A stretch of DNA of 64,000 nt from an uncultured Gammaproteobacteria bacterium (lineage in GTDB: Bacteria > Patescibacteriota > Microgenomatia > Levybacterales > GWA1-39-11): assembly GCA_964425075.1 (NCBI GenBank), contig CAYRKM010000001.1:18756-82755 (forward strand). Direction: 5' to 3'. The notes below the pieces were generated by a model. The model worked only from the letters and a program-made list of their open reading frames with translations. It was not told the DNA's origin and did no database searches. Within the stretch, counting starts at the first letter, position 1. Each line of letters opens with the position of its first letter. Both the position numbers and the translations under genes were made by a program. Shown piece after piece: positions 4,281 to 51,209 of the stretch.

Positions 4281-5077
4281 AGTGATTGAATTACAAAAAC
4301 ATTTGTCAATCTTGAAAAATCAAGAATTGGCATAATCTCAGCGCTTTGAAATGGCTGAGACTCATTTTTTGAAACTGATTTTATTTTTCCAATTATTATA
4401 TCGGGCAATATTCCTATCCCATTTTGGCCTACTTCTCCTTTTGTTACAACAATTCCGTCCTTTATTAAGGTATCTGTTATTACCACTCTGTCAAAAATCA
4501 TAAAATCTTGATGTCCTACGACAATTCCATTTGCATTTGTTTCGGGTAACTTTGCTAACGTCTGAAATTTATCATTTACAATCGTATACACTACTGAATA
4601 ATTTTTCGAAACTTCTTCAACTTTTCCAACAAGATACTTACTAGATATAACATTCATTCCTTTTTGAATATTCTGCGCCTCTCCCACATTTATTACAAAT
4701 GCTGTTGGCAAATTTCGCTGTCCTAAAAAACCAACAATCTTTGCATTCATAAGACTTTGAGAATAGTTTTGTGAGATTTGAAATTGACTCCGCAACGCTT
4801 CATTCTCGCGCTTTATTAATTCGTAATCAACCACTCTTGAAGAAAGTTCCTGATTTTTTTTCTGAAGTTCCAAGATTTCCTTTTGCCGCAAGTCACCTTT
4901 CAATGAATATAAAATTGCCCTTGGGGAAGAGAAAATATTTTGAATGCCTCCTTGAAACCATTTGGCAGCCGCTGAGTCTCTATACAAAAAAATTCCAATG
5001 GAGACTAGAAGAAAAATTATTGTAATAATAAGAAGCTTTTTATTCTTTGAAGTACCTGTAGTTTGTGCTCCTCTCAT
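4277..5077 (-). CDS. mreC: rod shape-determining protein MreC
   Basis: 266 aa; N-terminal TM, coiled-coil (LELQKKNQELS...), beta-domains with YLVGKV motif; gene order mreC-mreD-mrdA. Confidence 0.8.
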   Translation of the reverse strand: MRGAQTTGTSKNKKLLIITIIFLLVSIGIFLYRDSAAAKWFQGGIQNIFSSPRAILYSLKGDLRQKEILELQKKNQELSSRVVDYELIKRENEALRSQFQISQNYSQSLMNAKIVGFLGQRNLPTAFVINVGEAQNIQKGMNVISSKYLVGKVEEVSKNYSVVYTIVNDKFQTLAKLPETNANGIVVGHQDFMIFDRVVITDTLIKDGIVVTKGEVGQNGIGILPDIIIGKIKSVSKNESQPFQSAEIMPILDFSRLTNVFVIQSL

Positions 5078-5120
5078 AACCTCATATGTTAACAGAGATG
5101 AGGTCGTCTTGGCAAGAAAA

Positions 5121-5145
5121 GGTGTGCCCCCGATGGCTTCGGGGG
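5121..5145 (-). terminator. perfect 9-bp stem hairpin GTGCCCCCG-ATGGCTT-CGGGGGCAC downstream of island A gene
   Basis: inverted repeat read directly; lies 20 nt after stop of 5165..5566 on the minus strand, followed by CTTTTCTTG. Confidence 0.45.
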
Positions 5146-5164
5146 CACGGATGTGTTGACTGTG

Positions 5165-5566
5165 TCAAACCGAGATCGCGGGGAACTCCTCCTCAACGGG
5201 GTCGTTCACCTCCATCCAGTTGTGGACGCGGAACCCGCATCGCACACAGTACTGGTCTCGCTCCTTGTCGGGGAGCGTTTCCTCTCGAATTTGCCCTTCG
5301 CATCGGGGACATGGTGGACAGCTCTCGGCGAAGAACCTGAGAAATGCCCAGATAGTCGTACGACGCAGGCCGGAGTACGGACCGATGTTTTGGACCCTCT
5401 GGTGGTAGATGGTCCAGTTGACCCGAACTGGGAAGAGGCCATCTCCAACCCGCATGTACGTCCAGTACACGATTGTTGGATTAGCCTTGAACTCCCCGAT
5501 GCTGGGAAGAACATCCATGGGTACGGAATTCTCCTCCAACACTGAAGTTACGGAACTGCTTGTCAC
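5165..5566 (-). CDS. zinc-ribbon protein, hypothetical (GC-rich island A)
   Basis: 133 aa, GTG start 6 nt after AGGAGGAGATAG RBS; CPPCPRC...(18 aa)...CVRCG C4 motif; ~60% GC versus ~35% flanks. Confidence 0.5.
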   Translation of the reverse strand: MTSSSVTSVLEENSVPMDVLPSIGEFKANPTIVYWTYMRVGDGLFPVRVNWTIYHQRVQNIGPYSGLRRTTIWAFLRFFAESCPPCPRCEGQIREETLPDKERDQYCVRCGFRVHNWMEVNDPVEEEFPAISV

Positions 5567-5881
5567 CTATCTCCTCCTAACGAAGCGCTTGCCTATCGGC
5601 AGTCTATCTACACGTGTGTTATAACATCTTCCCCAAGCTAATGCTTGGGGTAAACCTCTAAAGGAAGATGCTTTCTTACTTCAATTCATCCCCTCACTTC
5701 GTATCGGGGTTTTCTTGAAGAGCGAATAAACAGGCTGCCGTAGGCAAAATTCTATAGTCAACTTTAAAAGAACTTTATTAGCTACTTGGAAAGCAATTAT
5801 CCAATTTGCAAACAAGGAGATATTTTACTACTGTTTTTTGTAAAATACTATAGGGATTTTCTATCTTAGACTAAAGACCTT

Positions 5882-15855: not shown

Positions 15856-16539
15856 ATGGAAGGAATATTTGGAGTTTACAAGACCCGCGGCATGACGTCA
15901 CACGATGTTGTTGCAATCATAAGACGCAAAACTAATGTTAAGCGTGTCGGTCATGGCGGTACTTTGGACCCCTTAGCAGAAGGTGTTCTTGTAATTGCAG
16001 TTGGACGCGAGAACACAAAACTACTCGATACATACGTTAAAGGAGAAAAGGAATATATTGCAGAAATCTTTCTTGGAGCCAATTCCACCACAGATGACGC
16101 GGAAGGAGAGATAAAAAAGGTAAACTCTAAAGTCATGCCTAAAATGGACAAAGTTAAAGAAGTGAGTAAATTATTTACTGGAGAGGTGATGCAAACCCCT
16201 CCCATCTACTCATCCGTGAAAATAGCGGGAAAACCTGCGCACCGTCGCGTAAGACGTGGAGAAAAAGTAAAACTCGAACCACGAAAAGTCAAAATTCACT
16301 CAATTGAAATTCTTGACTATCAATTTCCTGTTTTAAAACTGAAAGTTACAACAGGACCAGGAGTTTATATCCGCTCCCTTGCACGAGACATCGGAGAGCA
16401 GCTTGGAACGGGCGGTTATCTAACGAGCTTAATTAGAACAAGGGTTAATAATTTCACAATTGATGAGGCTATAAAACTTAATAATTCCGACTTTAGGCAA
16501 GAAAAAAAGCCCTCAGGCCAAGACACAAAAAGCGCGTGA
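15856..16539 (+). CDS. truB: tRNA pseudouridine(55) synthase TruB
   Basis: start at MEGIFGVYK Met; GMTSHDVV...GHGGTLDPLAEGVLVIAVG catalytic Asp motif. Confidence 0.85.
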   Translation: MEGIFGVYKTRGMTSHDVVAIIRRKTNVKRVGHGGTLDPLAEGVLVIAVGRENTKLLDTYVKGEKEYIAEIFLGANSTTDDAEGEIKKVNSKVMPKMDKVKEVSKLFTGEVMQTPPIYSSVKIAGKPAHRRVRRGEKVKLEPRKVKIHSIEILDYQFPVLKLKVTTGPGVYIRSLARDIGEQLGTGGYLTSLIRTRVNNFTIDEAIKLNNSDFRQEKKPSGQDTKSA

Positions 16540-16679
16540 TGCAATGCATATCTGCATCAGTACTGGTTGGTCCAACGACCCTCGGGCTTTGCCCGTTGAA
16601 TTCTTGTTTGTATCTTGCAAGAGGTAGACGCACTCAGCGTCGTTCGGGCTCCGCGCCCGCTTGCCACCACTAAGTCGCT

Positions 16680-17006
16680 TCAAACCGAGTGACTCTCGAT
16701 GTACGTAATCACGACCTCAGATGGGTCGTCTAGAACTGTCGCAAACATCCCATAGATCTCCTTCTTCAGACCAAGAAGTGCCTCTCTGTCACCCATGTAT
16801 TCCGCGGAAACATAGATCCTTAAGGGCACTCTGGCAAGGTCATCTTGTCCTGTTGGCCAGAACAAGATTTCCACCATCCTTGGTGACACGAAGAAAGCCC
16901 TGCGTGCACCGAGCTGAGTTGCCACCGTATGCGTCAACCACTCCCGCACCTGAACTCTGTCCAGGTTGATGCGGTCTGGGTTGTATCTAACCACTACTGT
17001 TATCAT
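16680..17006 (-). CDS. small hypothetical protein, paralog A (GC-rich island B)
   Basis: 108 aa (MITVVVRYNPD...); AAAGGAGTG RBS; preceded and followed by ~90-bp repeat; ~60% GC. Confidence 0.5.
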   Translation of the reverse strand: MITVVVRYNPDRINLDRVQVREWLTHTVATQLGARRAFFVSPRMVEILFWPTGQDDLARVPLRIYVSAEYMGDREALLGLKKEIYGMFATVLDDPSEVVITYIESHSV

Positions 17007-17009
17007 CAC

Positions 17010-17105
17010 GCACTCCTTTCAGGGCTTTACGAACACATGTTGCAAGTGGTAGGGTTTTTGACCCACTCAGGCCTTAACGGCCCGCTTGCCACCACTAGAT
17101 CCCAC
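17010..17105. repeat. ~90-bp intergenic repeat, copy 1 (second copy at 17439..17540; truncated third copy at 16648..16679)
   Basis: near-identical strings GCAAGTGGTAGGGTTTTTGACCCACTCAGGCCTTAACGGC(CC/TG)GCTTGCCACCACTAGA at both sites; each carries the RBS of the downstream small gene. Confidence 0.65.
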
Positions 17106-17438
17106 TTAGAACATCTCCGACTTGATCAGCACAATCCTGACGTGTTGTTCGGAGAAGCCCGGAAGGACTGCAACCACATCCTCCTTGAGTCGCCTCGCCA
17201 GATCCTCAGAACGACGGACGCCGTGGTCAACCAGAAGGCTGACGACGAAATGGATGTTTGGGTGTAACCTGTCGGATTCCCAATCGATCCTGCTGAAGAA
17301 AACTGCCACGTCCTCCGGACGAACCGGTTTTCCTCCTGCGAAAAAGTGGCCTGCCACGACGCGGCGAATTGCCTCAGCCCTCTCGCCGAAAGGAGCAAAC
17401 GACTGTGGCTTGTAATGAACCTCTACCTGAATTTTCAT
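17106..17438 (-). CDS. small hypothetical protein, paralog B (GC-rich island B)
   Basis: 110 aa from MKIQVEVHYKPQSF (internal Met of ORF 17106..17573) with GAAGGGAGTAAG RBS; same size and beta-alpha pattern as paralog A. Confidence 0.5.
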   Translation of the reverse strand: MKIQVEVHYKPQSFAPFGERAEAIRRVVAGHFFAGGKPVRPEDVAVFFSRIDWESDRLHPNIHFVVSLLVDHGVRRSEDLARRLKEDVVAVLPGFSEQHVRIVLIKSEMF

Positions 17439-17540
17439 GGATCTTACTCCCTTCAGAGTTTCACGGACACGTGTTTTGCAAGTGGTAGGGTTTTTGACCC
17501 ACTCAGGCCTTAACGGCTGGCTTGCCACCACTAGACCTGG
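17439..17540. repeat. ~90-bp intergenic repeat, copy 2
   Basis: see copy 1. Confidence 0.65.
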
Positions 17541-17706
17541 GTTTACCTTTTGCGATATCGGCAGATGTCGCAAAAGATCTTGTGGTCAAAGATGGGATGA
17601 GGAGCAGTGCCCTCACCTCCACAATTTCCACATCCAGGATCTGGTTTTGAGGTCGGGGCTCCGCGCCCCGCCTCAAGCAGTTTCACTTCGTCATCCATAA
17701 CTTCTC

Positions 17707-17964
17707 CTATTCTCTTGTGGTTAGCTCTGACCATTTCATGACCAGAACAGTCCAACCGACCATTAAGGCCAGTAAGACCCTCTCCATCATTGGATCCGTG
17801 TAGTTGATTATCGTAGCCCAGGGAAGGACTAAGAGAATCAACATGTAGAAGGCGTAGGCCATCCAGCCCCGCCAACCATACTTCCACTCTGAGGCAAGTA
17901 TGATCGTTGAAACCAGAAGGTATGCTGCCACACCTCCGGACCAATACCAGAAGGACTCCGGCAT
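17707..17964 (-). CDS. small two/three-TM membrane protein (island B)
   Basis: 85 aa from MPESFWYWSGG... with AAAGGTGA RBS; followed by GGGGCGCGGAGCCCC hairpin. Confidence 0.45.
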   Translation of the reverse strand: MPESFWYWSGGVAAYLLVSTIILASEWKYGWRGWMAYAFYMLILLVLPWATIINYTDPMMERVLLALMVGWTVLVMKWSELTTRE

Positions 17965-18170
17965 GGTTATCACCTTTCTAGAGTAAACGCGTGTGGTTTT
18001 GATCCGGCCGCAGCCGAACCTTATAGCACTTTGTAGGCGCCTTTCTGACCACACAAAAGATGATCACAAAAGCGCCCACAAAAATACACAAACAAGAATT
18101 TTCAATGAACGGGTGAAATTATACCAAAAAAAGAGTGGAATTAATGATTTGGAGTCAAACTTTCAAATAT

Positions 18171-19516: not shown

Positions 19517-20596
19517 ATGCCTGAAGGTGAAATAATTCCTCGAGTAACAACATTTGAGCCAACCGGAACTCCGCACGAACTTGCAAATCCAAAATTTTTG
19601 GAGGGTTTATCAATGAAGATAGAACCCAGGCGTAAATTGGTTCCACTTTTTGAATATCTTAAAGGAGCACAAAACAAACCAAGAGGACAAGAGGGAGGCC
19701 AAACAGACCTTAATTCTCATTTTGAACAATTTATAGTACGGGAAGGTGGAGAAATTAAGCTAAAAGACCTAAGTGAATTTTCAGAAATGTTACGCCTAGC
19801 AGGATTTAATGCTGACCTTTTGGGTGTTCAGTCCGTTGGTAACAAAAACCAACAAGTAACAGCTGTTGTTCAGGATGTAGATCCTAATAATCCGCAGTCT
19901 GGATACGAACGACCGGTCACTGCTGAAGGACCACACATGATAATTGCTCCCTACGCAACTGACGAAAACGGACAACTCCACGTATTCCGCACAGTTCAAT
20001 TCAGAACAGGAAGTGCGGGCATTGACACCGCAAGGGGTTTTTTGGATGCTCAAACACTTTCCTCAGGACAACATATCTATAAGGTTGAAGGGTCTGAGGG
20101 AAAAGTTCAAGAAAATCTGCGTCGAATAATCAAAGAAGAAGGCGGAGAAAAATTACTTAACATTAAAAAAGTTCAATTTTTAGGCGCACATACTGTTAAT
20201 AAGAGCTTTGTCACTTCCCCTTCTGCACTTTTCGCGGTTGAAGTTGATTATGAAACTTTTACACAATTGAAAAATGTAGTTTCTGCTGAGGAAGCTGCAC
20301 GTCGTAAATTTGAGTTCGAGCAACAAGGCCTAACAGATATGATTCTTGATATGACTCCGGAACAATATGTACACTACAAAACCAATCCCTCTCTTGCCAA
20401 GGACATGGCATCAGACAGTGCGACAGATATTGTGATGATGGATTTCCTCATGCGCGAACTTCAAAAAACTAAAATGAAAGAAAGAACAGCTGAGATAAAA
20501 CAAGAAGCCAAACCAGAATCAGATAGTAGTGGTGCCCATCTTCTTACTAAGGCTAGAAAACTATTGCACACTCTTCGTCACAAAAAATCTGCCTGA
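19517..20596 (+). CDS. hypothetical protein
   Basis: 359-aa ORF; no motif recognised. Confidence 0.5.
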   Translation: MPEGEIIPRVTTFEPTGTPHELANPKFLEGLSMKIEPRRKLVPLFEYLKGAQNKPRGQEGGQTDLNSHFEQFIVREGGEIKLKDLSEFSEMLRLAGFNADLLGVQSVGNKNQQVTAVVQDVDPNNPQSGYERPVTAEGPHMIIAPYATDENGQLHVFRTVQFRTGSAGIDTARGFLDAQTLSSGQHIYKVEGSEGKVQENLRRIIKEEGGEKLLNIKKVQFLGAHTVNKSFVTSPSALFAVEVDYETFTQLKNVVSAEEAARRKFEFEQQGLTDMILDMTPEQYVHYKTNPSLAKDMASDSATDIVMMDFLMRELQKTKMKERTAEIKQEAKPESDSSGAHLLTKARKLLHTLRHKKSA

Positions 20597-20656
20597 TTTG
20601 ATGTGTGAAGGGGCGCCCCGCGGTTAGACCGCGGGAGCACCCCATGAACCAAGGAC

Positions 20657-21376
20657 CTAGGCCAACATTGCCTCCGGATGTCTGGCAAGCCAGACCATGA
20701 GGGTGTCGTTGGCTGTGGCCGAACGGTAGTTGATGCCGTTCAGCTCACCCGCGGCGATGCGTGAAAGAATCTCCCTCACGGGCAACCATGCAGTTCCTGT
20801 GATCCGCTCCTCCGTGTCGGTAGGAAGTCTGACTTGCGTCAGGTCCACTTCAACTTCAAAGAGCGAACTCCATGAGGCACAGAAGGTGGGATTGGGGTTG
20901 TGATGCCCCATCTCGACTATCTCGCCGATGAGTGCCTCAGGTGGAACTCCACCCTCTTCAAGCAGCTCACGAAGAGCAGCTGCGATCACGGTCTCCGCAC
21001 CGCTCTCGTTGAATGCCATAACCGCGGGCTGCCCGAATACGATCGGCGGGTCAGCAGGCTCTCCGGAAGGAAGGTCTGAAAATGGCCTCTCCTGGAAAAC
21101 CACTAACACTCGCCAGCCATCGGCAGCTTTGCCGGCGGCAACACCATTGATGTTTGCCGCCTCTCTGTACGCTCCCCGCTCGAAAGCGGGGGAACCGTCC
21201 GGGTTGGTCTGGACGCGAACGCGCATGGAACCAAACCGGGGGGATGTAATTCCCCAACCATCTGGATCTGGAACCCAAGCATTCTCACCACGAGTGGCAA
21301 GAAAGTCTGGGCAATCCACTGGGTCAATCCAACCGCGCATCGATGATCTATCCTCTCCTTGCGGCCTTACGGCCAC
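20657..21376 (-). CDS. Nudix-like hydrolase (GC-rich island C)
   Basis: 239 aa (GTG start, or internal MRGWIDP Met with GGAGAGG RBS); degenerate Nudix box ETVIAAALRELLEEGGV (Ex7REUxEExGU). Confidence 0.5.
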   Translation of the reverse strand: MAVRPQGEDRSSMRGWIDPVDCPDFLATRGENAWVPDPDGWGITSPRFGSMRVRVQTNPDGSPAFERGAYREAANINGVAAGKAADGWRVLVVFQERPFSDLPSGEPADPPIVFGQPAVMAFNESGAETVIAAALRELLEEGGVPPEALIGEIVEMGHHNPNPTFCASWSSLFEVEVDLTQVRLPTDTEERITGTAWLPVREILSRIAAGELNGINYRSATANDTLMVWLARHPEAMLA

Positions 21377-21530
21377 GCTATGTCCTTGGTTGTAAACGAA
21401 CTATCCAGTTGGTCGAGCTTATTTGTGTGTTTTTAAACACACAAAGGCCTCTCCAAAAAGACAGTAAATTTTATCACTTTTGAACTTAAATGTCAAATGC
21501 TATGGGATATAATATGGGGTTACTTTGATG

Positions 21531-33044: not shown

Positions 33045-33271
33045 AAGTTGATGATAAATGCTTGATGGTAGATGGAAAATGAAATTGAAGTAAAACTCAT
33101 ATTAACCATTTATCATTTGCCATTCATCATTATATTTAGTGTACGGGAGATAAGAAATCTCAGTCAAGTAGAACAAACGGTATCTGTGCATTGCGAAGAA
33201 TTTAATGGTTGGTGGGAGACGAGCGCGCGTGCGCATCGCCCCCCACCGGTAGTCGCAGAGTTGATAGGTGC

Positions 33272-33436
33272 TCACCTCGGATGACCCCTCCAGTGGTCGG
33301 GAGGCCTCGGCCGTCCAGCTTGCTCTTGTGCCCATTGCTCGTCGGCAATCCGTCGGTCTCGCCGCCAGGCAAAACCTAGCACGACATACACAATCAGACC
33401 GCCAAGGACGAATCCGAGAACAAACGCTCCAAGCAT
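33272..33436 (-). CDS. small single-TM peptide (54 aa), island D
   Basis: MLGAFVLGFVLGGLIVYVVLGFAWRRDRR...; preceded by CCGGCGCAAGCCGG palindrome plus AGGAAGGGAG RBS; not in ORF track (<60 aa). Confidence 0.4.
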   Translation of the reverse strand: MLGAFVLGFVLGGLIVYVVLGFAWRRDRRIADEQWAQEQAGRPRPPDHWRGHPR

Positions 33437-33469
33437 GTCTGTCTCCCTTCCTCCGGCTTGCGCCGGAAG

Positions 33470-33613
33470 CTAGTCTCTTCGATTGTTGGGTGGACGGCCG
33501 TAACCGTGCGTTGGTTGTTCTCCGGCAAGGATGATCCTGCCGAGTTTGGCCGTCAGCAGGAGACCTCCTGCCAAAACGACCACGATAACCACAACCCACA
33601 CGGGTAGCGACAC
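33470..33613 (-). CDS. small single-TM peptide (47 aa, GTG start), island D
   Basis: VSLPVWVVVIVVVLAGGLLLTAKLGRIILAGEQPTHGYGRPPNNRRD; preceded by CCGGCGCGAGCCGG palindrome plus GGAAGGAGG RBS. Confidence 0.4.
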   Translation of the reverse strand: MSLPVWVVVIVVVLAGGLLLTAKLGRIILAGEQPTHGYGRPPNNRRD

Positions 33614-33647
33614 AATCTGCCTCCTTCCACCGGCTCGCGCCGGGGCG

Positions 33648-33959
33648 CTAACGATGGCCTAGATTGTAGACCACCTCCCTATGGAAATTCCTGAACTCCC
33701 ACGACCTTGCTGATGCATTGTGGACGTCCTCATCTTGACTTGGAATCGTCGATAAGATCGTCCTCAGTTGACTAGCATACTCACGGATTTCACCGATTTG
33801 TGCGGGTTTTACCCCACGAAAACCATGCCGCAGCATGATTTCATAGCTCACGATTCTGGTGATTTTTCCCCTGAGTACTCCCATCAGGACAAGCCTCTCG
33901 TCAAGGCTCATTCTCTGAACCCGTTGTCTGAAGTTCGAGTTACCTCGTCGAGTAGTCAT
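33648..33959 (-). CDS. hypothetical small protein, possible DNA-binding (island D)
   Basis: 103 aa from MTTRRGNSNFRQRV (internal Met where GC-rich sequence begins); GGAAGGGG RBS; upstream perfect palindrome GTGCC-GCGAG-GGCAC. Confidence 0.4.
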   Translation of the reverse strand: MTTRRGNSNFRQRVQRMSLDERLVLMGVLRGKITRIVSYEIMLRHGFRGVKPAQIGEIREYASQLRTILSTIPSQDEDVHNASARSWEFRNFHREVVYNLGHR

Positions 33960-34357
33960 GACTGCCCCTTCCGTTAGATGCTTGAGTTTCACTCTGCGTT
34001 GTAAATGTGCAATGTGCCCTCGCGGCACAAGCAAATTACACCGCAGAACACAATTGGGGAAATTATATACTTTTGAAGTCATATTTACCACAAAGTGATA
34101 ATTATCAATTAAGAATGAAGAATTAATTTTTTTTGCATTTGAAACGAAGAGTGTGTTATGTATTTTCGTCATTTTGTACCGAACATATGAACCGGTAAAC
34201 GAATATGAGTGGTCCGAAGGAAAAAGCTGTAAAGGCTGAGCTTGCGAACTGCCGGAGCTTTTAATGAATGAGTGAAACCGGCGAATACGTGAGGGGCAAT
34301 TGACGAGAGGCTTTGCTACTTTCGCCGGAGCGAAAGTAGAAGAAAGAGGGAATAACT

Positions 34358-39710: not shown

Positions 39711-39781
39711 ATTTGAATTTAAATGAAGCCTCAGTGATTGTATAAAGCAAGTTTTAAAAAAACAAGTGGAAAAAGCATTAT

Positions 39782-39817
39782 GCGCCGGGAATCCGCCAAA
39801 TGGCGGAAACCCGGCGC
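39782..39817 (-). terminator. compound hairpin GCGCCGGG-AATCCGCCAAATGGCGGAAA-CCCGGCGC followed (minus strand) by T-rich tract
   Basis: nested perfect inverted repeats 30 nt after stop of island E operon. Confidence 0.5.
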
Positions 39818-39846
39818 TATCGCACCTCCTCGTCGGAAAGGACCAC

Positions 39847-40215
39847 TTACAGGCTTCGCCGTGTGCTCAGCACCCGACCACCAGCAACTACGCCAACGGC
39901 GAGCACAACTAGCACCGCGGCAACCGCCAGGCTGCCAGACTGGTCGATGAGACCAGACGAGCCACCATTGGCTGGTGTCTGAGGCGTCGCGGCTGAAACC
40001 ATCTCCCGACTGCCTTTCAGCAGCCCGGCATTACCCACTTTGGGTGGAGTAATCTTTACCGTCTCTTGCGGTCGTCTCTCGAAAGAGATACTAACCGCCT
40101 GGGGCAACTTATCAGCCTGCTCCTGTTCGTTTTGGGCTCGGACGAAAACACCGAGAACCAACACGAGGGACACCACCATTACAGCGGCTACCATTTCCTT
40201 CTTTCTTGAACGCAT
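39847..40215 (-). CDS. secreted protein with N-terminal signal/TM and C-terminal hydrophobic anchor plus basic tail (island E)
   Basis: 122 aa; GAGGAG RBS; ...SGSLAVAAVLVVLAVGVVAGGRVLSTRRSL C-terminus. Confidence 0.5.
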   Translation of the reverse strand: MRSRKKEMVAAVMVVSLVLVLGVFVRAQNEQEQADKLPQAVSISFERRPQETVKITPPKVGNAGLLKGSREMVSAATPQTPANGGSSGLIDQSGSLAVAAVLVVLAVGVVAGGRVLSTRRSL

Positions 40216-40227
40216 CCCAGACTCCTC

Positions 40228-40401
40228 TCAGAAAATCTTCCTGATGGCAAGACTTATGCTTACCAAAAGGAAGATGGCAAACCCGAGCGGCGGGATAGCC
40301 GGGGAGATAGCGCTCTCGCCAATCCCACTAGAACTGTTTGATAGTGACCACACAAGAGTGGCCACCATGGCCGTCACCGAGACGGCCAACAGTCGAGCCA
40401 T
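40228..40401 (-). CDS. small two-TM membrane protein (57 aa), island E
   Basis: AAAGGAGGTGAA RBS then ATG; MARLLAVSVTAMVATLVWSL...FAIFLLVSISLAIRKIF. Confidence 0.4.
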   Translation of the reverse strand: MARLLAVSVTAMVATLVWSLSNSSSGIGESAISPAIPPLGFAIFLLVSISLAIRKIF

Positions 40402-40457
40402 TTCACCTCCTTTCGGAAAGTAGTGTTACGGCAAGACCGATCGAGCATCCAGTTCTG

Positions 40458-40838
40458 TCACAGCAGTGGTGGTGGTTTCCGTCGAGACTTTCGTCTCGAA
40501 AGAAATGTGGCTACCAGAGCAACCACAACGCCCACTTCGAACAGTATCAGGATGAGCAAAGCCGATACTGGTGGATCTGGTGCATATGTTGAGGCGCGAT
40601 CGTTGAACCACTCGAAGATGAGGATGGCTCCTAACACAAGTAGCACTATCATGGGGGTGGTATAGCGCCCACGATGTGATGCATCTTGTTTCTTGGCTTG
40701 CTGGACATCGTCTGGTTTCCTGACTTGCTGGTAATCCCACCAACTTCTCAGTCCTTCGTCGGGATTGCTCCCGTATCCAGACGTGTGAGCGGCCTCCAGA
40801 ACCTCTGGTGGCCACGTTTCCTTTTCTACGCGAGACAC
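40458..40838 (-). CDS. membrane protein (126 aa, GTG start), island E
   Basis: AGGAGGAAAA-GTG start (VSRVEKETWPP...); two C-terminal TM helices and RRKSRRK tail; longer ORF-track call 40458..40937 lacks an RBS. Confidence 0.45.
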   Translation of the reverse strand: MSRVEKETWPPEVLEAAHTSGYGSNPDEGLRSWWDYQQVRKPDDVQQAKKQDASHRGRYTTPMIVLLVLGAILIFEWFNDRASTYAPDPPVSALLILILFEVGVVVALVATFLSRRKSRRKPPPLL

Positions 40839-40863
40839 TTTTCCTCCTAGGAATTTCGTCCGT

Positions 40864-41079
40864 TTAGTGCGGCCAGCCTGGCCTTGATCCTCTCTGCTCT
40901 CGCAGGAAGGCTTCCACTTCATCCCCCAACCCAACATCGAAGTCGGGCGGAAGGGGCTCGAGCGGTGGGAGTTTTGGCTGAAACAAGATCCGGTGAACCA
41001 TCACCGGACCTATCAACATTACTCCCACAACGATTGCATCGAACACAGTTTGCCGAATCCTTCGTACTAGTCGAGACAC
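40864..41079 (-). CDS. small membrane protein (71 aa, GTG start), island E
   Basis: AGGAGGAACGACA-GTG (VSRLVRRIRQTVFDAIVVGVMLIGPVMV...); upstream perfect palindrome CTGCGGAC-AA-GTCCGCAG. Confidence 0.4.
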   Translation of the reverse strand: MSRLVRRIRQTVFDAIVVGVMLIGPVMVHRILFQPKLPPLEPLPPDFDVGLGDEVEAFLREQRGSRPGWPH

Positions 41080-41297
41080 TGTCGTTCCTCCTGTCCTTTC
41101 CTTCAATTGTTCGTGTGCGATAACTGCGGACAAGTCCGCAGAGAATTTTCAGATCCCCCAACAAGGCAGCTTTTGCCAAGTTCGGTTATCCAATGATGGA
41201 ATAATACCAAAAAATAGCAACAGAAACAAACTATGGGTTAAAAATTTGTGCTTTTTTACTCTTTGTTTTTTTTATTTGAAACAATATGGTATAGTAG

Positions 41298-47254: not shown

Positions 47255-47899
47255 CTAATCCTTAATTTCAAACTCTTCGATGATATTTGAGATTGTTCCA
47301 TGCTCACCTAAGTTGGCGACTATAAGTTTGGTAACCTGAAAATCTATAGTTTCAGTTTCGCCTAATGTTTTCATCGCCCCATTCCTATCTTTCTCGTTTT
47401 TAAGCCTTGTTAGAGTAACATGCGGAACGTAAAGCTCACCATGATAAATTGCTCCCGTCTTCAATACGTTTCGTCGTTCTTTTTCACCTAATTCTTCAAG
47501 TTGTTCTAATGCGGGGGGTGCGATAAGTCCTTCGCGAAGTGGATTTGCCAGTTTTAGAATTTGTCGGTGAAACTCCATAATTTCCTTTGATTTTTTTGCG
47601 TTCCACCAAACAAATCTTCCGGGGCTTATCCAAAAATCTGACATAAAAACGGAAAATTTTTTGCTTTCTTTGGAAAATTTTAGAAGAGTCTTTTTTAAAG
47701 AATCAAGATTTTTATATGGAAAATATCCTTGATAAATAGTTATGTGCGGTCTGAAATTTTTAGTATTAAGCGTAAATTCTGATGCAAATTTCTTAGTCAG
47801 ATTTTCACTTTGCTTAATCGCCTCTTTCTTTACATCGACTGAGGGCAAAATCACAATATTTAAAGCAATTGCTCTATTCTTGTCATTACTTGAAATCAT
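47255..47899 (-). CDS. 2H phosphoesterase superfamily protein (LigT-like 2'-5' RNA ligase/cyclic phosphodiesterase)
   Basis: 214 aa; two HxT/Sx motifs (HITIYQG and HVTLTRL). Confidence 0.65.
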   Translation of the reverse strand: MISSNDKNRAIALNIVILPSVDVKKEAIKQSENLTKKFASEFTLNTKNFRPHITIYQGYFPYKNLDSLKKTLLKFSKESKKFSVFMSDFWISPGRFVWWNAKKSKEIMEFHRQILKLANPLREGLIAPPALEQLEELGEKERRNVLKTGAIYHGELYVPHVTLTRLKNEKDRNGAMKTLGETETIDFQVTKLIVANLGEHGTISNIIEEFEIKD

Positions 47900-49485: not shown

Positions 49486-49756
49486 TTTTTTTACACTTCT
49501 ATTACTTCTTTTCCTCTAAGATTCAGCTTCTCTTGCTTTAATTTAACCTAAATTTATAACTTCGTCAGAAATTTGTCATGAAAAATTGACTGTAAGTGGT
49601 AAAATTGTTGAATTGAAAATCCAATTTGGGTTATATCAATAAGCTCTTTAATAATTGGGTGGATTTTTAGTGCTTGAAAGGGTTCTCCCGATCTTAAGAT
49701 ATATTGTCTTCGGATCGGGGGAACTCCCCAAGGGATCACAGAAAGGATCAACAACC

Positions 49757-50896
49757 ATGCCGAGTTTGCGCGGCCAAGAGGTTACCATTTCCGTCATTAA
49801 GGCGGATGTTGGCAGCATCGGAGGCCACACGCGCCCAAGCCCAACCATGATCAGACACGCGGAAAGAGCCATCGAAGGCGCAATCCGCGAAGGACTCATC
49901 GTGGACGGCTTCGCCACCTTCATCGGTGACGACACTGCCCTGAACATGCTTCACACTCGTGGAGAAAACTCGCAGGACGTACATCTCTTCGCATCAACGA
50001 CGTTCTTCGAGATGACCGGGATCGCGGAGAGAGAAGGTCTCTATGGCGCAGGCCAAGACCTCCTTGAGAGTGCTCCCAGCGGCAACGTCCGCGGAGCGGG
50101 ACCTGGTGCTGCCGAGATCGAATTCGTTCTCTTGCCTGACCGACGTTCGGCGGAGAGCATGATGATCTTCTCTGCAGACAAGTGCGGACCGGGAATGTTC
50201 AATCCCTACATCCGCGACGTCCTCACCAGCCCTGACGTCAACGGAGGGCTTCTTATTGCCTCTCCGCAGCGAGCAGGCTTCACGGTGAAGATCATCGACA
50301 TGAGTCCAGGGGCAAAGCAGGCCATCACGCTCACTCTGCCTGAAGACCGAGATGCGATGGCTGCTCTTCTGAGGACGCCAGACGTCTTCGCTGTCAAAAG
50401 CGTCTATTCGGGTCAGCATCCCGAAGAAAAGCTGATGGACTGCACGACCGACAGGCTTCACAGCTTCGGACCGACCGTGTACAAGGGCAAAGATGACCCT
50501 GTGCTCATTGTCCGAAATCAGGGGCTGTCCCTGGCACCGGAGGAGATCCTTCGACCGTGGACAAATCCGCGCAGAACCACAGGCGGCGCCCGTGGGAGCT
50601 CGGTGCAATACCCCTTCCCGAGCGCCATCAACACCCCGGTGACAGGAGCTTACTGCCAGACGCTAGTCGCCTGCATCGGCTTCTCGGTCAGCGAGGAGGG
50701 CAAGTTCTCGGAACGGGTCGACTTCTTTGCTTGGCCCGTCTGGGACTGGACACGTCAGCAGGTCTCCAAGCTTGCTAACCAGCTCTACCGCGAGGGGTTC
50801 AACGAAATGGCAATCGCCTCGAGTGGCGAACTCGCCTACACAGGCCTTCGTGACCTGGACGAGGCACTTTTGGCCCGTTTCGAGCCCATCGACTAG
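49757..50896 (+). CDS. fbp: bifunctional fructose-1,6-bisphosphate aldolase/phosphatase (class V FBPase, archaeal type), island F
   Basis: 380 aa from MPSLRGQEVTISVIKADVGSIGGHTRPS; ISVIKADxGS, GDDTALNMLHTRGE and GLYGAGQDLLESAPSGNVRGAGPGAAEIEF blocks match the FBP aldolase/phosphatase family; ~60% GC. Confidence 0.8.
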   Translation: MPSLRGQEVTISVIKADVGSIGGHTRPSPTMIRHAERAIEGAIREGLIVDGFATFIGDDTALNMLHTRGENSQDVHLFASTTFFEMTGIAEREGLYGAGQDLLESAPSGNVRGAGPGAAEIEFVLLPDRRSAESMMIFSADKCGPGMFNPYIRDVLTSPDVNGGLLIASPQRAGFTVKIIDMSPGAKQAITLTLPEDRDAMAALLRTPDVFAVKSVYSGQHPEEKLMDCTTDRLHSFGPTVYKGKDDPVLIVRNQGLSLAPEEILRPWTNPRRTTGGARGSSVQYPFPSAINTPVTGAYCQTLVACIGFSVSEEGKFSERVDFFAWPVWDWTRQQVSKLANQLYREGFNEMAIASSGELAYTGLRDLDEALLARFEPID

Positions 50897-51209
50897 TCCG
50901 GGGTAACCGGAGATCCACCCATCCCGAGAGAAGAGTCCCTGCCAGTACTACATAGACTGCAGACTGACCTCAGGAGAATGCATTCCTGAACGTCTTTTTG
51001 CAGCAAAATGTAATGCTTACTCTTCTCTCTCACCCTTTGCAAATGAAGCTCCACGAGTTAACACTCATGGTATCTTCTTTTCCTCGCTTGCGCCTTAGAG
51101 GGTATTAAGCTCGGAAAATAAAAAGGTTTGTTTTCAAAGGATGAGAATAATATGAATTTTTTGACGGAATTATCTAAAAAAATGGGGATTGAAGGAGGAT
51201 TAAAGTTAA

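Follow-up and report, generated by a model that had tools for sequence, protein, structure and literature searches.

In integrons, the attC recombination sites carry an inverse core R″ (RYYYAAC) and a core R′ (GTTRRRY) at their two ends, and their bottom strand folds into one imperfect hairpin (R″-L″ paired with L′-R′) that has extrahelical bases. A complete integron also has the tyrosine recombinase IntI nearby. The transcribed intergenic repeats REP/BIME, ERIC, the pneumococcal BOX and the neisserial Correia elements shape the processing and stability of mRNAs and are also recombination hot spots. The mRNAs of phage T7 contain intercistronic hairpins that are processed by RNase III, and rRNA precursors are bracketed by end-pairing stems. 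Phage morons are autonomous promoter-gene-terminator units of atypical base composition that lie between conserved genes. Among integrons, attC clusters that lack a nearby integrase (CALIN) are common (PMC4889954). Little is understood about how accessory genes are acquired and exchanged by bacteria of the candidate phyla radiation (CPR) with genomes of <1 Mb. Island B, the locus described here, lies in a 64-kb stretch of DNA (the window) of an 835-kb genome. It is a clade-specific, GC-rich and self-contained modular accessory operon, of which the modules are delimited by a new three-way-junction element of ~64 nt. At this locus, gene-sized modules are swapped, added and lost at a defined structured element amid conserved housekeeping genes, with no visible recombinase.

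Island B extends from the stop codon of truB (16539) to ~18100, between the convergent stop codons of truB and ndk, and all of its open reading frames (ORFs) are on the minus strand. As the preliminary description had stated, the block is GC-rich (50–56%, versus ~37% for the window overall, in which six blocks reach 50–60%). The GC content at third codon positions (GC3) is 0.59–0.64 in gene A, gene B and the transmembrane (TM) gene of the island, whereas it is 0.27–0.34 in truB, ndk, purA and pgk. Because of this difference (~0.6 versus ~0.3 in the host), the modules of island B are foreign or separately evolving in origin; block B therefore has a different compositional history, and its ORFs show coding periodicity. 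The host is a Levybacteria-like CPR bacterium, and the sole named match in the list of truB relatives is Candidatus Levybacteria, at 66% identity; the source protein lies on an NCBI contig of 835,411 bp. From 5′ to 3′, the island consists of a candidate promoter with a leader, a small TM protein, an optional zinc-ribbon mini-protein, a modular tail, the terminal junction element, a bracket arm and a terminator. In the tail, every ~110-aa gene is preceded by a ~95-nt unit made up of the 64-nt junction element, a leader and a Shine-Dalgarno site. The features of the locus are the following:

16527..16559, minus strand: intrinsic terminator of the island operon, with its hairpin at 16537–16559; found by a terminator scan and kept in the related strains L101, L102, L104 and L105
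16599..16616: 3′ arm of the bracket inverted repeat, 18 nt, 89% complementary to its partner at 18083–18100
16611..16674, minus strand: Et, the terminal junction element, covariance-model score 78.6 bits
16680..17006, minus strand: gene B, 108 aa, ATG at 17006 with an alternative GTG at 17009
17007..17035, minus strand: gene B leader with the ribosome-binding site AAAGGAG, within the repeated ~95-nt unit
17036..17099, minus strand: E2, an internal junction element, covariance-model score 80 bits
17106..17438, minus strand: gene A, 110 aa, predicted tautomerase-superfamily fold, no N-terminal proline
17439..17471, minus strand: gene A leader, which holds ACACGTGT, with the ribosome-binding site GGGAG
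17472..17535, minus strand: E1, an internal junction element, covariance-model score 74 bits
17543..17698, minus strand: Cys-rich ORF of 51 aa, CxxC...CxxC, zinc-ribbon-like, with an AGGAG that overlaps the stop codon of the TM gene
17707..17964, minus strand: TM gene, first of the operon, 85 aa, three hydrophobic segments
17965..18126, minus strand: conserved 5′ region with a candidate −10 box, the bracket 5′ arm, a 12-mer and the ribosome-binding site of the TM gene

The junction element is present in three copies of the same orientation, which score 74–80 bits with its covariance model (E ~1e-17), and nothing else in the 64-kb window scores >9 bits with the filters off. A dispersed repeat is ruled out, as these are the sole three copies in 64 kb and lie at one locus. 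E1 and E2 are 97% identical over 60 nt, and each forms with its leader a ~95-nt unit, in which a GGAG ribosome-binding site stands 6–9 nt ahead of the start codon; a near-identical ~90-bp element supplying the ribosome-binding site ahead of both genes had indeed been described. The third copy, Et, had been regarded as truncated but is of full length. It is 60% identical to both others without gaps and retains the same conserved ends (UAGUGGUGGCAAGC ... CUACCnCUUGC), that is, the 5′ box of 14 nt together with CUACCnCUUGCAA as the 3′ box, and the intervening 31 nt form hairpins that differ from those of E1 and E2 in P2 and P3 with the pairing maintained.

When both strands were folded, the element gave a three-way junction consisting of P1 (GCAAG/CUUGC, 5 bp), a P2 hairpin, a 3-nt A-rich joiner (J2/3), a P3 hairpin and the joiner UACCn (J3/1). 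On the sense strand its ends, (U)AG(U)GGUGGCAAGC and CUACCnCUUGC, are nearly invariant, and so are the unpaired nucleotides of the 5′ tail AG(U)GGUG, of J2/3 and of J3/1. In an alignment of ten copies from five strains, 94% of the cells are paired, three pairs of P3 are doubly changed, covariation amounts to 0.208 versus 0.101 after shuffling (0/500), and slid controls pair at 18–48%. With fifteen copies, including those from three other contigs, 94.9% are paired and double changes are seen in 8/16 pairs (0/500 shuffles), although this larger alignment is model-fitted and leans to structure by construction. G-U pairs on the gene-sense strand repeatedly keep the pairing where the opposite strand would have C-A mismatches. 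All the elements are co-oriented with the genes, 2–9 nt past a stop codon and ~30 nt ahead of the next start. Of the ~60 nt of Et, 1 differs in L101 from the window, whereas identity is 79% in gene A and 87% in the stretch from Et to truB; because Et is near-unchanged while these two have diverged, the element is under selection. It is a new and well-supported structured motif.

Rfam 15 gives no relevant match at E ≤ 1 over 3.5 kb, nor at E ≤ 10 on the isolated elements, and tRNA-like punctuation is ruled out, since ARAGORN finds no tRNA-like gene at the locus. The suspicion that the repeat might be conserved coding sequence is likewise removed, because its core, CCCTACCACTTGCAA, is read in different frames, as NPTTCK in an ORF extension in the window and as KPYHLQ in L102. 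A hammerhead-like core does not fit the junction lengths, as judged by eye (J1/2 is 0–1 nt, not CUGANGA). Pairing of the 5′ tail (GUGGUG) with J3/1 (UACCnC) was also rejected, as the sole variable position pairs in one of three variants (U-A; the others being U-U and G-G). E1 and E2 have in common the lineage-specific P2 state GGCCUG, which is GGUCCG in L102, L104 and L105, and this shared state suggests a local origin of E2.

The content of the island varies among related strains, which were located through truB. In five relatives (JGI 3300048101, L106, L107, L108 and L109; truB 74–76% identical), truB and ndk abut or overlap, an arrangement that represents the empty ancestral site. Four other strains, which come from other samples, hold the island at the same truB-ndk site with differing content. 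L101 has E, a homologue of gene A and then directly Et, and lacks exactly one unit relative to the window, where the extra 403-nt unit consists of the remainder of E2 and gene B. The window and L101 align in two segments that overlap by 22 nt common to the repeats, CCTAGTGGTGGCAAGCGGGCGC, and the indel junction lies there. L103 and L104 have the same TM and Cys-rich genes as the window, E, one different gene (gene C) in place of A and B, and Et. L104 is 95–100% identical to the window from 17990 to ~17480 and 97.5% identical from 16675 leftwards, whereas between ~17470 and 16690 the two are unalignable (~40–50%); the loss of identity begins and stops exactly where E1 ends (3′) and Et starts (5′), the cargo being replaced between these two elements. 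L102 has a different TM gene, no Cys-rich ORF, E, gene D and a third variant of Et with a longer P2, and L105 has a third TM gene, a 46-aa Cys-rich ORF, E, a 121-aa gene starting with MPRV and a fourth variant of Et. The leader that follows every E is semi-conserved (AACAYGTGTYCG...GCGCAAAGGAGCGC), and the repeated unit is therefore the element together with leader and ribosome-binding site, while in every strain compared the terminal copy has no gene behind it. The modules are thus added, lost and replaced with breakpoints at the element, and the cassette-array architecture proposed in the preliminary description is borne out by all these strains. A diversity-generating retroelement or point hypermutation can be rejected as the source of cargo divergence, since whole genes are unalignable beside flanks of 95–100% identity. 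The island was in place before strains diverged that now differ by up to 22% in their truB proteins, yet the GC3 of the modules stays at ~0.6.

The ~110-aa proteins A and B had been described as similar. They are alike in length and in the predicted order of secondary structures (β-α-β-β-α-β) but show no significant sequence similarity (BLASTP E = 2.9; hhalign profile comparison E = 0.11). Their paralogy is plausible; in a global alignment, genes A to E form one divergent family. A model of gene A built from a four-sequence alignment (pLDDT 77) matches cis-CaaD, Cg10062, fused 4-OT and MIF in the PDB (Foldseek; E ~1e-5 to 1e-4, TM-score 0.6–0.69). Gene A is thereby predicted to adopt the (β-α-β)×2 fold of the tautomerase superfamily, and the earlier guess at a tautomerase-like protein is supported at the fold level for gene A; a single-sequence model of gene B gives weak ferredoxin-like matches only. 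Pro1, the catalytic N-terminal proline, is absent from A (MKIQ), B (MMIT), C and D (both MKIQ), and only the cargo of L105 begins with MP (MPRV). No family match was found for the island proteins or their relatives in Pfam, NCBIfam or PADLOC. Gene A has two relatives in 5.8 billion clusters, to which a profile search adds one more protein, and gene B finds only itself among 1.84 billion representatives. Between gene A and a 65%-identical relative, 24, 19 and 31 differences fall at codon positions 1, 2 and 3 without any indel or stop codon, and for this reason gene A is coding yet fast-evolving. At the head of the operon, the small TM protein noted before is present as an ORF of 85 aa, but the 51-aa Cys-rich ORF had been overlooked in the preliminary description. 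The TM gene is ~97% identical at the nucleotide level in L104, while unrelated small TM proteins take its place in L102 and L105; the Cys-rich ORF is conserved in L104, is represented by the 46-aa ORF in L105 and is absent in L102.

The edges of the island were once placed at a 12-bp near-repeat, which is largely a terminator tail. Its left copy (16524–16536) is the complement of the U-tract of the minus-strand terminator, which overlaps the last codons of truB; of two hairpins downstream of the bracket arm, the second is this terminator-like hairpin with its U-tract. The right copy, CACAAAAGCGCC, is at 18065–18076 and not at 18077–18088, where the stretch reads CACAAAAATACA, and within the conserved 5′ region it provides the 5′ side of a GGCGC/GCGCC stem. 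The 12-bp repeat is rejected both as a target-site duplication and as an att core, since the left copy belongs to a terminator, the right one lies in a stem of the 5′ untranslated region (UTR) inside the bracket, and the 12-mer is missing from L106, the one empty-site sequence read. The 18-nt inverted repeat around the island marks the boundary better. Its arms change in concert: in L105, both have TTCCTG in place of TTCTTG, and in L102 both have gained a CCCGATnCAATCGGG hairpin. A DNA transposon or mobile insertion cassette has terminal inverted repeats at its very ends, next to a target-site duplication, and a transposase in cis or trans. Here, conserved island sequence continues beyond the bracket repeat, the 12-mer is outside one bracket arm and inside the other, and the scanned ORFs of the window include no transposase. 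The 5′ region (17965–18126) is conserved in L102 and L105, which also keep a candidate extended −10 box, TGGTATAAT (18118–18126, minus strand), recognized by eye and unlisted by the consensus scan. As this candidate is upstream of the right bracket arm, that arm would fall in the 5′ UTR. The bracket repeat could pair the ends of the RNA as a stem, provide two sites for a protein or serve for inversion, and it is not found at the other GC-rich islands of the window. At the truB side, the sequence that encodes a 14-aa C-terminal tail of truB (RQEKKPSGQDTKSA; 16497–16539) comes after the truB stop codon in L103; the island flank has therefore been recruited into the truB frame in the window strain.

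GTDB genomes and JGI metagenomes (596 Gb) were scanned with a 20-nt pattern derived from the window copies, which gave 99 matches where ~28 are expected by chance on our own estimate. Most of these matches are due to chance or are coding, such as a conserved Streptomyces gene and a 51-nt soil/Chloroflexi sequence. With the full model, L047 (two copies), L040 and L070 stand out at 39–46 bits versus 15.5–29 for the remainder; L040 and L047 are uncultured Gammaproteobacteria according to their record titles, on which alone this taxonomy is based. In all three contigs, the element is at the 3′ edge of a unit of 52–58% GC in a contig of ~35% GC, directly behind the last ORF of the unit, an ORF for small membrane proteins, and without any gene after it. 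It adjoins one arm of a 12–13-nt inverted repeat whose other arm is at the 5′ side of the unit, perfect in L047 and L070 and 92% complementary in L040; the L070 arm has UUGUUUG/CAAACAA in common with the window arm. The two units of L047 have unrelated interiors but are alike over the last 94 nt on the 3′ side (99% identical) and over 220 nt on the 5′ side (88%), and this 5′ stretch includes a near-consensus TTGACT-17-TATAAT promoter. At 4700–4830 (minus strand), the promoter is followed by a terminator-like leader hairpin. The repeat therefore occurs with other cargo both in the related strains and elsewhere, a point on which the cassette proposal had been made to depend. Because the Et-type 3′ box (CUACCUCUUGC) is the one common to L047, L040 and L070, the terminal copy looks like the original form, from which the internal E-type copies seem to have been elaborated locally. 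A phage or plasmid origin is rejected, as phage and plasmid collections (blastn) and viral contigs (pattern) hold no match. Two further observations were made on these contigs. In L047, a perfect 17-mer (GGCAGAAAGTATCAGCA; 304–320 and 4831–4847) flanks a 4.5-kb stretch that contains both units with host genes between them. The 51-nt sequence (GTGGTGGCAAGCGCCTCGGTGGTGACGGTCATCTCACTCCCTACCACTTGC; L019, 349–409) is near-identical, together with its flanks, in a Chloroflexi metagenome-assembled genome (MAG) and in ~12 soil metagenome loci (L032, L063, L072, L074, L076, L080–L082, L088, L089 and L096), and is unrelated to the element.

The interpretation that we prefer, with a probability of about 0.4, is that the junction element punctuates the sense-strand RNA, with its conserved boxes providing the breakpoints of recombination. 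It would act on the sense strand within the polycistronic RNA, where endonucleolytic processing and/or protection by an end structure would define the ends of each cistron, a role that we infer, and the bracketing stem would possibly work together with it in defining these ends. The end boxes GGUGGCAAGC and CUACCnCUUGC, since both are near-invariant, would double as DNA homology for the gain, loss and replacement of modules by short-homology or homologous recombination, a putative mechanism for an outcome that is itself seen among the strains. An RNA role is favored because the elements are between stop and start codons, show sense-strand wobbles and have a leader and a ribosome-binding site attached. 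It is also favored because the element is single-copy and 3′-terminal in the other units, no recombinase is found, and E2 has the lineage-specific states of E1. Several points weigh against this interpretation. First, RNA processing or stabilization by the element would be purely inferential. Second, G-T wobbles are tolerated in folded single-stranded DNA too, and the sense DNA strand could be the active form. Third, near-invariant boxes of 10–12 nt conserved across phyla are what a recombinase site is expected to look like. Fourth, Et and the E-type copies are linked by just 22 nt of identity, which is marginal for RecA-type recombination, and the indel maps there. Fifth, the bracket 5′ arm of L070 is inside the spacer of the best promoter candidate and may not be transcribed. 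Finally, a recombinase may be encoded beyond the 64 kb of the 835-kb genome.

In the main alternative, a tentative one that we hold to be less probable, the element would be a recombination site at which a site-specific recombinase, with its gene elsewhere, cuts and rejoins the DNA, either folded as a single strand or bound as duplex, in functional analogy to attC. Modules composed of an element remainder, leader, ORF and 5′ box would be excised and inserted at the conserved 5′ box. It accords with this that the elements outnumber the module genes by one and all have one orientation, that conserved ends enclose a variable yet structured centre as in attC, that the junction of the unit indel is within the 22-nt 5′ box, and that cargo replacement is bounded by elements. 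The same end boxes also close unrelated GC-rich units in other phyla, the two units of L047 being alike at their ends only. A recombination site served in trans explains the invariant boxes, the 22-nt junction and the end-only sharing of units at least as well as RNA punctuation does, and arrays without an integrase are common for integrons (PMC4889954). However, integrase, resolvase, transposase and HUH domains are absent from the ~64 window ORFs covered by the domain scan and from the short contigs of the relatives, which agrees with the earlier remark that no integrase is evident. The scanned ORFs of the window are otherwise housekeeping genes, for example PBP, MreC, sortase, DsbB/DsbA, ArgRS, NusG, L1, PGK, PurA, Obg and Era-like. 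There are no attC core sites and no matches in phage and plasmid collections or viral contigs, and the conserved unit includes the leader and ribosome-binding site, as befits an expression element. In addition, E2 has the lineage-specific substitutions of E1, which is unexpected of an imported module unless the copies were later homogenized.

A wider reading, possible though rather unlikely, regards the element as the cis-site of an undescribed family of small GC-rich promoter-to-terminator modules that colonize intergenic sites in AT-rich, often reduced genomes in more than one phylum, namely the Levybacteria-like CPR and MAGs titled Gammaproteobacteria (by record titles only). The element would be either the cis-site at which an unlinked enzyme moves or swaps modules independently of an integrase, or a new self-cleaving or processing RNA carried on them. 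There is a similarly small but real chance that island B gives the first glimpse of a new system of module mobility or RNA processing.

Tandem duplication of a gene with its 5′ leader is a doubtful explanation. The element would then be a ligand- or protein-binding RNA for translational control of this gene family, gene conversion would keep the repeats alike, and the differences between strains would be plain allelic divergence. Although the element, the semi-conserved leader and the ribosome-binding site do precede every module gene of the family, E1 and E2 have common derived states, and global alignment joins genes A to E into one divergent family, the terminal copy lacks a following gene in all strains, and in L047, L040 and L070 the element comes after unrelated membrane-protein genes with no gene behind it. 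Point divergence, moreover, cannot yield unalignable cargo beside flanks of 95–100% identity, and no riboswitch or leader family of Rfam matches.

More improbable still is a special case of RNA punctuation, in which the element would be a small self-cleaving ribozyme of a new kind and would cut the polycistronic transcript at every module boundary. Twister, pistol and hatchet ribozymes are known from comparable contexts. A length of ~60 nt and a three-way junction fit small ribozymes, as do the nearly invariant unpaired nucleotides (5′ tail AG(U)GGUG, J2/3, and UACCn in J3/1), and copies recur between cistrons and together with island-like, possibly mobile DNA in unrelated genomes. Yet the isolated element matches no known ribozyme family even at E ≤ 10, its junction (J1/2 of 0–1 nt) is unlike the hammerhead core, and self-cleavage would be putative only. 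An assembly chimera or a chance repeat can practically be dismissed: the sharp GC jump could hint at a mis-join, but the gene B-Et-truB junction is reproduced in the independent Logan assembly L001, four further strains, sampled elsewhere, have the island at this very site, and a covariance-model E-value of ~1e-17 rules out chance.

The remaining five GC-rich blocks of the window (5100–5620, 20600–21400, 33200–34000, 39770–41100 and 49750–50900; 50–60% GC, GC3 0.6–0.7) also lie between housekeeping genes. Their cargo includes a 133-aa orphan, a 239-aa Nudix protein, several small membrane ORFs and a class V fructose-1,6-bisphosphate aldolase/phosphatase (Pfam FBPase_3, 1e-96), and the covariance-model search of the window finds no junction element in them. 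In block C, a 14-nt inverted repeat (20647–20660 and 21378–21391, 93% complementary) brackets the Nudix ORF from just before its start to its stop codon, which echoes the brackets of island B, L047, L040 and L070. The GC-rich Nudix gene (20657–21376) adjoins an AT-rich host gene of 359 aa (19517–20596) that has a Nudix-box-like RRIIKEEGGEK without a Pfam match, and the two may be functionally related neighbours. In block D (33440–33480 and 33620–33660, minus strand), TAG, a CCGGCGCRAGCCGG hairpin and GGAGG/GGAAGG were seen by eye ahead of each small membrane ORF, a second and different gene-repeat-gene layout. Elsewhere in the window, a gene at 47258–47899 encodes a LigT-like 2′-5′ RNA ligase/2H phosphoesterase (Pfam 2_5_RNA_ligase2, 4.5e-9). 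LigT-like 2H enzymes act on RNA ends with cyclic phosphates.

Because the same boxes are found where GC-rich units end in unrelated AT-rich genomes, the covariance model of the junction element provides a search handle for a possibly widespread class of accessory modules. The element also makes the choice between an RNA processing signal or ribozyme and a recombination site directly testable, and the cargo, a fast-evolving, clade-restricted family with a predicted tautomerase-like fold that lacks the catalytic proline, is unexplored in its own right.

Among known systems, the tautomerase superfamily (4-OT, cis-CaaD, Cg10062 and MIF) resembles the cargo in that the predicted fold of gene A matches the fused (β-α-β)×2 arrangement, but the island proteins match no Pfam or NCBIfam family, and Pro1 is missing in A, B, C and D. 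Like a moron, island B is inserted precisely between two conserved genes, which adjoin each other in relatives, carries a terminator of its own along with a candidate promoter (recognized by eye), and has a GC3 about twice that of its neighbours. Unlike morons, it resides in a cellular CPR host with no phage genes nearby, contains an internal modular array and ends in a conserved RNA-like element common to units in other phyla. The structured element after each cistron and the long-range inverted repeat around the whole transcript, with arms that change together, recall T7 mRNAs and rRNA precursors, although the island elements have no long duplex of the RNase III type and their processing is only presumed. 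With REP/BIME, ERIC, BOX and Correia sequences, the element has in common that it is a short structured repeat within an operon transcript, between stop and start codons, and a plausible determinant of RNase action or stability, and such repeats mediate deletions and rearrangements. However, these families have tens to hundreds of dispersed copies, against three copies at one locus per 64 kb here, and they have no counterpart of the conserved single-stranded boxes and the three-way junction of the element.

The closest comparison is with integrons and CALIN, to which the preliminary description had likened the locus. Co-oriented short genes, structured sites with conserved ends and variable centres, close strains that differ in cassettes with breakpoints at the sites, and the lack of an adjacent recombinase, as in CALIN, are common to both (PMC4889954). 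Membership is nevertheless not supported. As arrays without an integrase are known as CALIN, the absence of the enzyme alone is not decisive, but the anatomy of the site is. Neither strand of the element shows RYYYAAC/GTTRRRY at its ends, as the earlier remark on the missing attC core had it, and its fold is a three-way junction on a 5-bp P1 with two hairpins and with wobbles on the sense strand, not the single imperfect hairpin of attC. In addition, the island site is upstream of its gene and travels with it together with the leader and the ribosome-binding site, the cassettes all belong to one protein family, and the host is a CPR bacterium, with the locus on an 835-kb contig. With its co-oriented sites, short ORFs and content that varies at these sites between strains, island B is a cassette-like variable locus that is not an integron but works like a cassette array.

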